From Escherichia phage LF82-1: 64,000 nucleotides of DNA. The stretch is taken from the sequence record PV648359. One strand, 5' to 3'. Positions 30,814 through 32,102 of this stretch are shown piece by piece. The notes below the pieces were generated by a model, which searched no databases, had not been told where the DNA came from, and worked only from the letters and a program-made list of their open reading frames with translations. The position numbers and the translations under genes were made by a program. The first letter of the stretch is position 1, and every line of letters begins with the position of its first letter.

Positions 30814-31638
30814 TTAACAATTTATAGACCAAGTCCATTTAGACGAATCTAAAGGAAAGTTTTGAATCGTCCACCATGGCTGCATATCGGTTGGTCCTGG
30901 GGTTCGCCAGGTATATGGAGTACGTGTTGTCGAGGGGCCACCAATTTGATTAGGCCATGCACCTGGACTTGTTGCACCAGATTCTTTAAGCAAATCCGCC
31001 AATCGTTTTAAAAGGTCTTCACGATCTGAATCTGAATTATGCTCTGGCGGAACCAATCGAGATTCAATATCATCCCACGTGTGTACACGTTGTGCAGTGC
31101 GAGGAATATCATCACGTTCACCACGAGCCAACCAATAAATCGGTACATTAAGAATTTCTGCCGCATGGTCACAGTGATGAGCTAAATCGTCAACGTAACA
31201 AATCACGTTATATTTTGTTTTAGCTAGTTCGAATAATTGTTCCTTTGAAGAATCATGACCACACATCATTACTTCAGAGAAAGCGCCTGGGAACAAAGCA
31301 TTCAAATTAAATTGTCTATTCAATCGAGCATCAATTGAATCACCTAGCGCCGTCACGGCTACAAAATTATAGTCTTCTTTTAGTTTATTGATAACTCGAA
31401 GAGCATCTGAATAAGGCGCTAAGTAACGAATAAAATCAGAGCTATTATATTTTTCTATTAATTGTTTACCAAGGTTATCGTCGGTATTGAACAGTTTACC
31501 AGGAGAAATAAATTTTTCGTCCTGAATCATTTTTAAAATATGTTCTAATGGAAGATTATATTTTTGGGCAAAATAAGGAAGTCCAGATTGCCAACTTAAA
31601 CATACACCATCAATATCAGTCAAAATAGTAGGCTTCAT
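30814..31638 (-). CDS. HAD-superfamily hydrolase-like protein with W/P-rich C-terminal tail
   Basis: 274 aa; N-terminal TDIDGV (HAD motif I) and later YVDD; unusual Trp/Pro/Thr-rich last ~50 aa. Confidence 0.6.
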   Translation of the reverse strand: MKPTILTDIDGVCLSWQSGLPYFAQKYNLPLEHILKMIQDEKFISPGKLFNTDDNLGKQLIEKYNSSDFIRYLAPYSDALRVINKLKEDYNFVAVTALGDSIDARLNRQFNLNALFPGAFSEVMMCGHDSSKEQLFELAKTKYNVICYVDDLAHHCDHAAEILNVPIYWLARGERDDIPRTAQRVHTWDDIESRLVPPEHNSDSDREDLLKRLADLLKESGATSPGAWPNQIGGPSTTRTPYTWRTPGPTDMQPWWTIQNFPLDSSKWTWSINC

Positions 31639-32102
31639 AAAGAGTCTCTTAATAGGTTTAACACATCAATAAATTCAGCTTCAGTTAGTATTGTATCATC
31701 TTTTGTTAGGTGGCTGGCCATGCTATGCTTCAAAATTTTTCCTTTAGAGGCTTGTAAGGCATCACGAAATCCCTTATTTTGGATCGCTGCTTCAAAATAT
31801 GCATTTGTGTATAATTCTTTCCACGCTTCAGAGTATCTTGAAAATGGAACTCCCAACCAGAAGAGGGTCCCACGGTCCTGAGCTCTTGCATAAGACCTTC
31901 CAGCTTGTTGGGCGGCAAGCCCGGATAGCCCAAATATACGTCTTTGTTGTTCAACATTTTTCACCTTACATCCTTGGAGAAACCCTTCAAGACCTCCGAA
32001 TTGAATACCGTCCATAACAAAAGGCCATTGAGCAAAGTTACTTAATGCACATGACGGCCACTTGAAATTACTTCTTATTTCTAATTCAGACATCTTTAAC
32101 AC
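31635..32102 (-). CDS. NADAR/YbiA-like (DUF1768) domain protein
   Basis: 155 aa; LSNFAQWPF..DG motif resembles the YbiA/NADAR signature FSNFA.WP...DG; assignment from motif recall only. Confidence 0.55.
   Translation of the reverse strand: MLKMSELEIRSNFKWPSCALSNFAQWPFVMDGIQFGGLEGFLQGCKVKNVEQQRRIFGLSGLAAQQAGRSYARAQDRGTLFWLGVPFSRYSEAWKELYTNAYFEAAIQNKGFRDALQASKGKILKHSMASHLTKDDTILTEAEFIDVLNLLRDSL

Follow-up and report, generated by a model that had tools for sequence, protein, structure and literature searches.

The minus-strand gene at 31635-32093 of a 64,000-nucleotide stretch of Escherichia phage LF82-1 DNA (sequence record PV648359; hereafter the window) is very probably adfN, the orthologue of T4 gene 30.3. 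Its coding sequence of 152 codons plus a stop codon is predicted to encode a single-domain, phage-type NADAR ADP-ribosylglycohydrolase, and we have little doubt that this product removes guanine-linked ADP-ribose (ADPr) from phage DNA, countering DarTG1. The original prediction, made from the letters of the window, had proposed a YbiA/NADAR-like protein, from a family linked to the removal of ADPr from nucleic acid bases, with a possible role against DarT-like systems. That proposal is upheld by the predicted fold, the catalytic residues and the published activity of a T4 protein that is 96% identical. The family, its fold, its chemistry and its biological role are already in the literature for that T4 protein (2023-2026), and this is not a new discovery; the value of the present assignment lies in annotating a gene otherwise labelled 'hypothetical protein'.

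Identity and extent of gene 30.3

The 30.3 protein matches the Pfam family Phage_30_3 (PF08010) along the whole profile (positions 1-138 of 138), scoring 232.2 bits (E=1.9e-69) where the cut-off is 36, and it also matches PHROG 652. It shares 146 of 152 residues with T4 gp30.3 (NP_049816; hereafter AdfN-T4) without any gap, the six substitutions relative to AdfN-T4 being K11R, E89P, I120V, M125I, A126V and H128G. The proteins of Bas46 and Bas47 are closer still, at 98% and 99% identity, respectively (two to three positions differ), and RB69 gp30.3 is 97% identical across 137 common residues. The gene lies between 30.4 and 30.2, the same position as in T4 and RB69. Taken together, these sequence comparisons identify it as the orthologue of adfN (gene 30.3) in an RB69-like (Mosigvirus-type) T-even coliphage. 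By tblastn, homologues turn up in 1510 phage records, most of them from T4-like phages that infect enterobacteria, Aeromonas, Acinetobacter or Vibrio. Comparison with T4 revealed 31 codons with synonymous-only differences and six with non-synonymous ones. The PF08010 match, the number of phage records and this predominance of synonymous change all argue that 30.3 is not a chance open reading frame (ORF).

The original prediction had placed a 155-residue product at 31635-32102. The ORF is real and runs on the minus strand from a GTG at 32102 to a stop codon at 31635-31637 (155 codons), but its 5' end was probably drawn 9 nt too long. Translation most likely starts at the ATG at 32093, for a product of 152 residues, because three lines of evidence agree on it. 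This ATG is the annotated start in the T4, RB69, Bas46 and Bas47 orthologues, the N-termini of the homologues in a 53-member family alignment fall at or after it, and the published residue numbering (E36, K43) is compatible with the ATG start only. The GTG at 32102 was considered as a start and set aside. Escherichia phage LF82-2 (PV648360.1), to which the window is 100% identical at the same coordinates, has a coding sequence annotated at 31635-32093 with an ATG start and 152 residues, and the T4, Bas46 and Bas47 orthologues also have 152 residues. The nine bases in front of this ATG (GTG TTA AAG; 32094-32102, minus strand) encode C-terminal residues of gp30.4 and are probably outside the 30.3 product. 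Overlapping ORFs of 53, 72 and 75 residues, on the plus strand or in alternative frames, were dismissed as unsupported by-products of the coding frame.

The RB69 orthologue is shorter, with 137 residues. An extra T at position 411 of the RB69 gene, after CTAAC, creates a TGA stop codon, and the last 15 residues are lost. These correspond to codons 138-152 of the window gene (31638-31682, minus strand), which encode a C-terminal alpha-helix (residues 138-151 in the structural model described below) needed for full activity. In a three-way DNA alignment of the window, RB69 and T4, RB69 reads CTAACTTGA where the window reads CTAAC-TGAAGC; since the extra T is absent from the window gene, the C-terminal helix of its product is predicted to be intact. 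RB69 is sensitive to DarTG1 because the extra T truncates its AdfN, and this type of C-terminal truncation weakens the protein (PMC11825919).

The family is poorly annotated in the databases. Most records in a spread sample of 40 label the gene 'hypothetical protein', as does the LF82-2 record, and two use the gp30.3 family name. The gp30.3/NADAR homologue of Klebsiella phage phi1_146002 (L009 3001-3441) is labelled 'virion RNA polymerase', an apparent mis-annotation.

NADAR fold and predicted activity

The product contains the motif ALSNFAQWPFVMDG...EGFLQGCK, whose LSNFAQWPF..DG portion had suggested the likeness to YbiA and NADAR proteins. A profile built from 53 homologues substantiated this likeness, as it finds Escherichia coli YbiA at E=0.0012 and aligns LSNFa..PF..DG....EGFlQ..K with YbiA residues 29-85. 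Direct searches with the 30.3 protein were empty: it does not match the Pfam NADAR model PF08719 (formerly DUF1768) even at E<=1, a search of PDB chain sequences gave nothing even at E<=10, and the NCBIfam and PADLOC searches gave nothing. For this reason, the link to NADAR proteins needed the family profile, transitive matches and structure; the sequence evidence alone is thin. Among the 53 homologues, 18 match PF08719 on their own (best E-value, 1.5e-7), and Pfam keeps the phage branch as the separate model PF08010. Thus, the hidden Markov model match to NADAR/DUF1768 proposed as a check is absent for the protein itself, whereas the sister model Phage_30_3 is matched. The lack of a NADAR match, named beforehand as a refutation, would have misled.

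A model computed with AlphaFold2 from 52 sequences has a mean predicted local distance difference test score (pLDDT) of 93.7 and a predicted template modelling score of 0.89. As in the YbiA fold, about five helices make up an alpha-helical core that has small beta-hairpins at its sides. The top three Foldseek matches in the PDB are all NADAR structures, namely YbiA (2b3w), the ADPr-bound NADAR of Phytophthora (PnNADAR; 8bau) and a NADAR of Geobacter lovleyi (8bat), the remainder being noise. The comparison with YbiA that had been suggested thus came out in favour of the prediction, and the modelled structure settles the question of the fold. The product consists entirely of this NADAR core, as a free-standing single domain of 152 residues.

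The conserved catalytic residues are all present and invariant in the 53 homologues. Glu36 (codon GAA, 31986-31988, minus strand) would be the ribose-coordinating catalytic residue; it corresponds to E43 of PnNADAR and is aligned to E48 of YbiA. Lys43 (AAG, 31965-31967, minus strand), the putative pyrophosphate-binding residue, corresponds to PnNADAR K50 and is aligned to YbiA K55. In NADARs, the conserved Glu makes contact with the distal ribose of ADPr and the conserved Lys with its pyrophosphate (PMC11543638, PMC11825919). His123 (CAT, 31725-31727, minus strand) directly follows the last beta-strand (residues 120-122 in the model) and marks phage NADARs. At the last strand, YbiA-family proteins have Glu, DarG1 has Asp and phage NADARs have His (PMC11125620, PMC11543638, PMC12945103). 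This position bears on whether the protein could be a YbiA-type N-glycosidase of riboflavin-pathway intermediates with a housekeeping role. The YbiA-defining Glu is replaced by His in all 53 homologues, there are no riboflavin genes nearby, and sequence identity to YbiA is only ~20%; we regard such a role as exceedingly improbable.

The T4 gene 30.3 was renamed adfN in 2024-25 (PMC11825919, Johannesman et al., Nat Commun 2025; PMC11125620, Toxins 2024). DarTG1 resistance was mapped to this gene using RB69 x T2/T4 chimeras; T4 and T2 with adfN deleted no longer form plaques on DarTG1 cells, and DarTG1-sensitive RB69 is rescued by ectopic adfN (PMC11825919). The protein thus proved both necessary and sufficient for resistance. 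Purified AdfN-T4 takes ADPr off DarT1-modified DNA; AdfN-T4 does not bind DarT1 and is weakened by either of the E36A and K43A substitutions (PMC11825919). On DNA, the T4 NADAR hydrolyses guanine-linked ADPr but not the thymine- or cytosine-linked forms (PMC11125620, PMC12945103). The link between AdfN and DarTG1 resistance comes from the deletions in T4 and T2 and from a correlation in Bas35-47, of which Bas46 and Bas47 are fully resistant despite carrying the inactive R164 allele of AdfA (PMC11825919). The methods of PMC11125620 describe the T4 gp30.3 construct as 'residues 1-208', as against 152 residues in OZ209057.1, which is probably a typographical slip; the supplement of the same paper cites NP_049816.1 for T4 gp30.3.

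As near-identical AdfN proteins occur in resistant Bas46 and Bas47, which lack an active AdfA, we infer with high confidence that the window gene confers DarTG1 resistance on its phage, with its product enzymatically removing guanine-linked ADPr from the phage DNA. The activity, the guanine specificity and the resistance are all carried over from the T4 protein and from phages with 98-99% identical proteins. In the proposed mechanism, the host toxin DarT1 would ADP-ribosylate the N2 of guanine in phage DNA, blocking replication. The adfN product would then bind ADPr, with Lys43 holding the pyrophosphate and Glu36 and His123 positioned at the distal ribose, and cleave the N-glycosidic bond between ribose and guanine. 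Cleavage would free ADPr and leave unmodified DNA, allowing replication on DarTG1-carrying hosts. The protein would thus act as an orphan type-IV-like antitoxin that undoes the damage and does not bind the toxin. The phage is predicted to be DarTG1-resistant, unlike its relative RB69, which bears on the choice of phages for DarTG1 hosts.

Several observations sit less comfortably with this assignment. In addition to the missing PF08719 match, three of the substitutions relative to AdfN-T4 lie in the loop right after the catalytic His123, and the confidence of the model is lowest in this very block (residues 121-130, pLDDT 85). The SMAS(H/G) loop of the window protein is also found in the DarTG1-resistant phages Bas46 and Bas47. 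Moreover, the E36A and K43A substitutions abolish rescue only in part (PMC11825919), and AdfN-T4 fails to protect uninfected cells from DarT1 and gives T5 and Bas25 hardly any rescue.

The main substrates might instead be other ADPr conjugates, such as RNA carrying guanine-linked ADPr or soluble, ADPr-derived signals or toxins of host immune systems, the action against DarTG1 being one facet of a broader activity. The T4 NADAR does hydrolyse guanine-linked ADPr on RNA in vitro (PMC11833690), distant phages have the gene beside tRNA clusters, RNA ligase and helicases, and DarTG1 pressure alone arguably does not account for the presence of the family in so many phage records. However, the complete loss of plaquing upon adfN deletion in T4 and T2 is specific to DarTG1 hosts, the phage family has no demonstrated soluble substrate, and the activity on RNA is below that of a DarG1-type enzyme. 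We consider it unlikely that such conjugates are the main substrates, and such an activity would add to the removal of guanine-linked ADPr from DNA rather than exclude it.

Gene neighbourhood, synteny and divergence

The gene is embedded in a string of minus-strand genes, 30.5, 30.4, 30.3, 30.2, 30.1 and ligase, that overlap or abut. Upstream, the 30.4 orthologue (32086-32304, minus strand; 72 residues) matches phrog_2042 (E=4e-35) and is 54% identical to T4 30.4; its stop codon and the start of 30.3 overlap by 8 nt. Downstream, the 30.2 orthologue (30814-31638, minus strand; 274 residues) matches phrog_420 (E=3e-78), and its start overlaps the stop codon of 30.3 in an ATGA. The 30.2 protein has a HAD-like N-terminal domain with a DIDGV motif I, with sub-threshold scores (Pfam HAD_2, E=0.014; best PDB match, the 5'(3')-deoxyribonucleotidase 2jao, E=0.18). 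Further downstream in the same string, gene 30 (29045-30538, minus strand) encodes an ATP-dependent DNA ligase (Pfam DNA_ligase_A_M, E=1.9e-26) that is 64% identical to that of T4. Also nearby is a gene for an Alt-like ADP-ribosyltransferase (26714-28801, minus strand; Pfam ADPrib_exo_Tox, E=6e-28), 42% identical to T4 Alt. No DarT-like gene is present among the annotated neighbours (30.4, 30.2, 30.1 and ligase).

A candidate promoter of the sigma-70/T4-early type lies upstream of 30.5 (32516-32545, minus strand). It consists of TTTACA, preceded by a G, an 18-nt spacer and TATAAT, has 11 of 12 consensus matches and gave the best score in a 9-kb scan of the region. It is plausible that the genes from 30.5 to ligase form a single early transcription unit starting there, and 30.3 is probably transcribed early. 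The T4 late promoter core TATAAATA is absent from the minus strand between 28802 and 34843, which is uninformative as to whether alt shares this transcription unit. In the whole window, this core occurs 20 times against 7.1 expected, a number reached in none of 100 shuffles. Thirteen matches are on the plus strand at 2-25 kb, in the structural-gene block, and a minus-strand match is found at 34844-34851, between gene 31 and rIII.

We compared the neighbourhoods of gene 30.3 in eleven lineages that carry a homologue. Six lineages, all Straboviridae, have a homologue of 30.2 between 30.3 and the ligase gene, namely T4, the RB69 type, Acinetobacter phage LemonAid, Yersinia phage JC221, Klebsiella phage phi1_146002 and Cronobacter phage LPCS28, the 30.2 proteins of the latter four being 46-49% identical. 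In Phi1, 30.3 immediately precedes the ligase gene. In Vibrio phage D527, an unrelated NT5C-type HAD gene (Pfam E=6.5e-11) overlaps the end of the NADAR gene, with gp47/46 next. Aeromonas phage SW69-9, Rhizobium phage RL38J1, Brevundimonas phage Kabachok and Ralstonia phage RSP15 have other neighbours, including tRNA, helicase and RNA ligase genes. HAD-like genes thus adjoin or lie near the NADAR gene in the window (30.2) and in the comparison loci L003 (6485-7144), L008 (4039-4746), L009 (4227-4760), L010 (4174-5007) and L005 (6453-6959). We rejected 30.2 as a universal partner of 30.3, as it is not beside it in Phi1, SW69-9, RL38J1, Kabachok and RSP15; across the family, 30.3 can thus do without it.

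The operon argument of the original prediction, which involved the ligase, the HAD hydrolase and Alt, therefore stands in part: the ligase and the HAD-like 30.2 are genuine and recurrent neighbours, whereas the link to Alt is unsupported. The latter had raised the option that the protein handles the phage's own ADP-ribosylation, reversing or tuning the marks made by Alt, ModA and ModB, or RNAylation. The alt gene does share the strand of 30.3 and lies 2.8 kb downstream of it. Nevertheless, alt is near 30.3 in only three of the eleven lineages (T4, the RB69 type and LemonAid), and in the last of these the two genes are on opposite strands. The target of Alt and the Mod enzymes is arginine, whereas the NADARs tested all cleave base-linked ADPr, on guanine and for some on cytosine, and the T4 NADAR is guanine-only. 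The contrast between an Alt protein 42% identical and a 30.3 protein 96% identical to their T4 counterparts also argues against co-evolution. We therefore view a role in tuning these marks as very improbable. The closeness of NADARs to ADP-ribosyltransferases in T4-like phages has already been remarked on (PMC9503650).

The NADAR, a HAD phosphatase or nucleotidase and possibly the ligase might constitute a clean-up module for DNA de-ADP-ribosylation, with a factor encoded by a neighbouring gene. Under this hypothesis, 30.3 would be translationally coupled to both 30.4 and 30.2 through their overlaps. The finding that AdfN-T4 acts fully only in the context of a T-even infection leaves room for a partner such as 30.2 or 30.4. 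We rate this module as improbable, because the pairing is absent in five lineages, synteny is generally conserved in these phages and the enzyme, once purified, is active by itself. The recurrent neighbourhood of NADAR, HAD-like and ligase genes provides a cheap list of candidates, 30.2 and 30.4, for the T-even-infection requirement.

Gene 30.3 is far closer to its T4 counterpart than its neighbours are to theirs. It has 90% nucleotide identity to T4, with synonymous change in 21% of the conserved codons, whereas 30.5, 30.4, 30.2, 30.1 and ligase have 64-72% nucleotide identity; in these neighbours, synonymous change affects 29% of the conserved codons of 30.4 and 41-47% of those of each of the other four genes. 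At the protein level, Alt, ligase, 30.1 and 30.2 are 42-73% identical to those of T4. Within 30.3, a 100-nt stretch (31873-31972) is 95% identical to T4 and 86% to RB69. This island of low divergence suggests strong purifying selection together with recombinational exchange among T-even lineages. A mosaic exchange of adfN would agree with how easily the gene was taken up by the published chimeras.

The region as a whole is sharply mosaic; compared with the divergent Alt, the products of 30.3, 30.7, 30.9, rIII and gene 31 a few kb away are 94-97% identical to those of T4. A 204-residue ORF (32546-33160, minus strand) fills the slot of the ~95-residue gene 30.6 of T4, RB69 and Bas46/47 and adjoins the early-type promoter candidate on its upstream side. 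Its product has no Pfam, NCBIfam or PADLOC match, and the 120 phage records that contain the ORF come almost exclusively from Escherichia or Shigella T-even phages. Further upstream, a complete gene (36121-37113, minus strand) codes for an AroF/G/H-type 3-deoxy-7-phosphoheptulonate (DAHP) synthase (NCBIfam TIGR00034, E=2.4e-128). It lies directly upstream of and abuts the dCMP deaminase gene cd (35540-36121), a place where T4 has no such gene. By tblastn, the synthase is found in 212 phage records, mostly of Mosigvirus-type coliphages, but also of Klebsiella, Serratia and Proteus phages; the synthase gene counts among the known auxiliary metabolic genes.

Comparison with known systems

Other phage proteins also provide DarTG1 counter-defence. 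AdfA (gp61.2), encoded outside the window, has an unrelated sequence and works through binding to DarT1. AdfN-Bas32 and AdfN-Bas60 belong to other NADAR branches and are active without a T-even infection. Among non-phage NADARs, E. coli YbiA (2b3w) and Phytophthora NADAR (8bau) are 14-20% identical to the window protein and have Glu at the last strand (E125 in PnNADAR), where the window protein has His123. The role of YbiA is related to riboflavin, and cytosine-linked ADPr is a further substrate of YbiA-type and general NADARs.

DarG1 proteins (for example, those of G. lovleyi, 8bat, and E. coli C7) are encoded in an operon with DarT1 and have Asp in the last strand. In the window, no ADP-ribosyltransferase gene is adjacent in a toxin-antitoxin arrangement, and the residue is His123 instead. 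DarG1 is also larger (219 versus 152 residues), and additional elements at its N-terminus shape a channel that binds DNA. Unlike AdfN-T4, it protects uninfected cells. Thus, the window protein would work like DarG1 but is outside the DarG1 (BC4488) family.

The closest systems are those of T-even phages. RB69 is 95-100% identical to the window at the DNA level over most of the length of 30.2 and 30.1, and its alt, ligase and 30.1 genes have exactly the same lengths as in the window; in contrast, its gp30.3 is truncated, whereas the window gene is full length. The Mosigvirus phages Bas46 (ChristianSchoenbein) and Bas47 (AlbertHofmann), the nearest relatives of RB69, have the same gene order as the window, except that 30.5 and 30.6 are found upstream, where the window has 30.5 and the unrelated 204-residue ORF. 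Finally, AdfN-T4 differs from the window protein by six substitutions and belongs to a phage whose flanking genes are at 54-73% amino-acid identity to those of the RB69-like window phage, but the two proteins are alike in their length of 152 residues, the E36/K43/H123 set, the C-terminal helix and the place of their genes between 30.4 and 30.2, upstream of the ligase gene.

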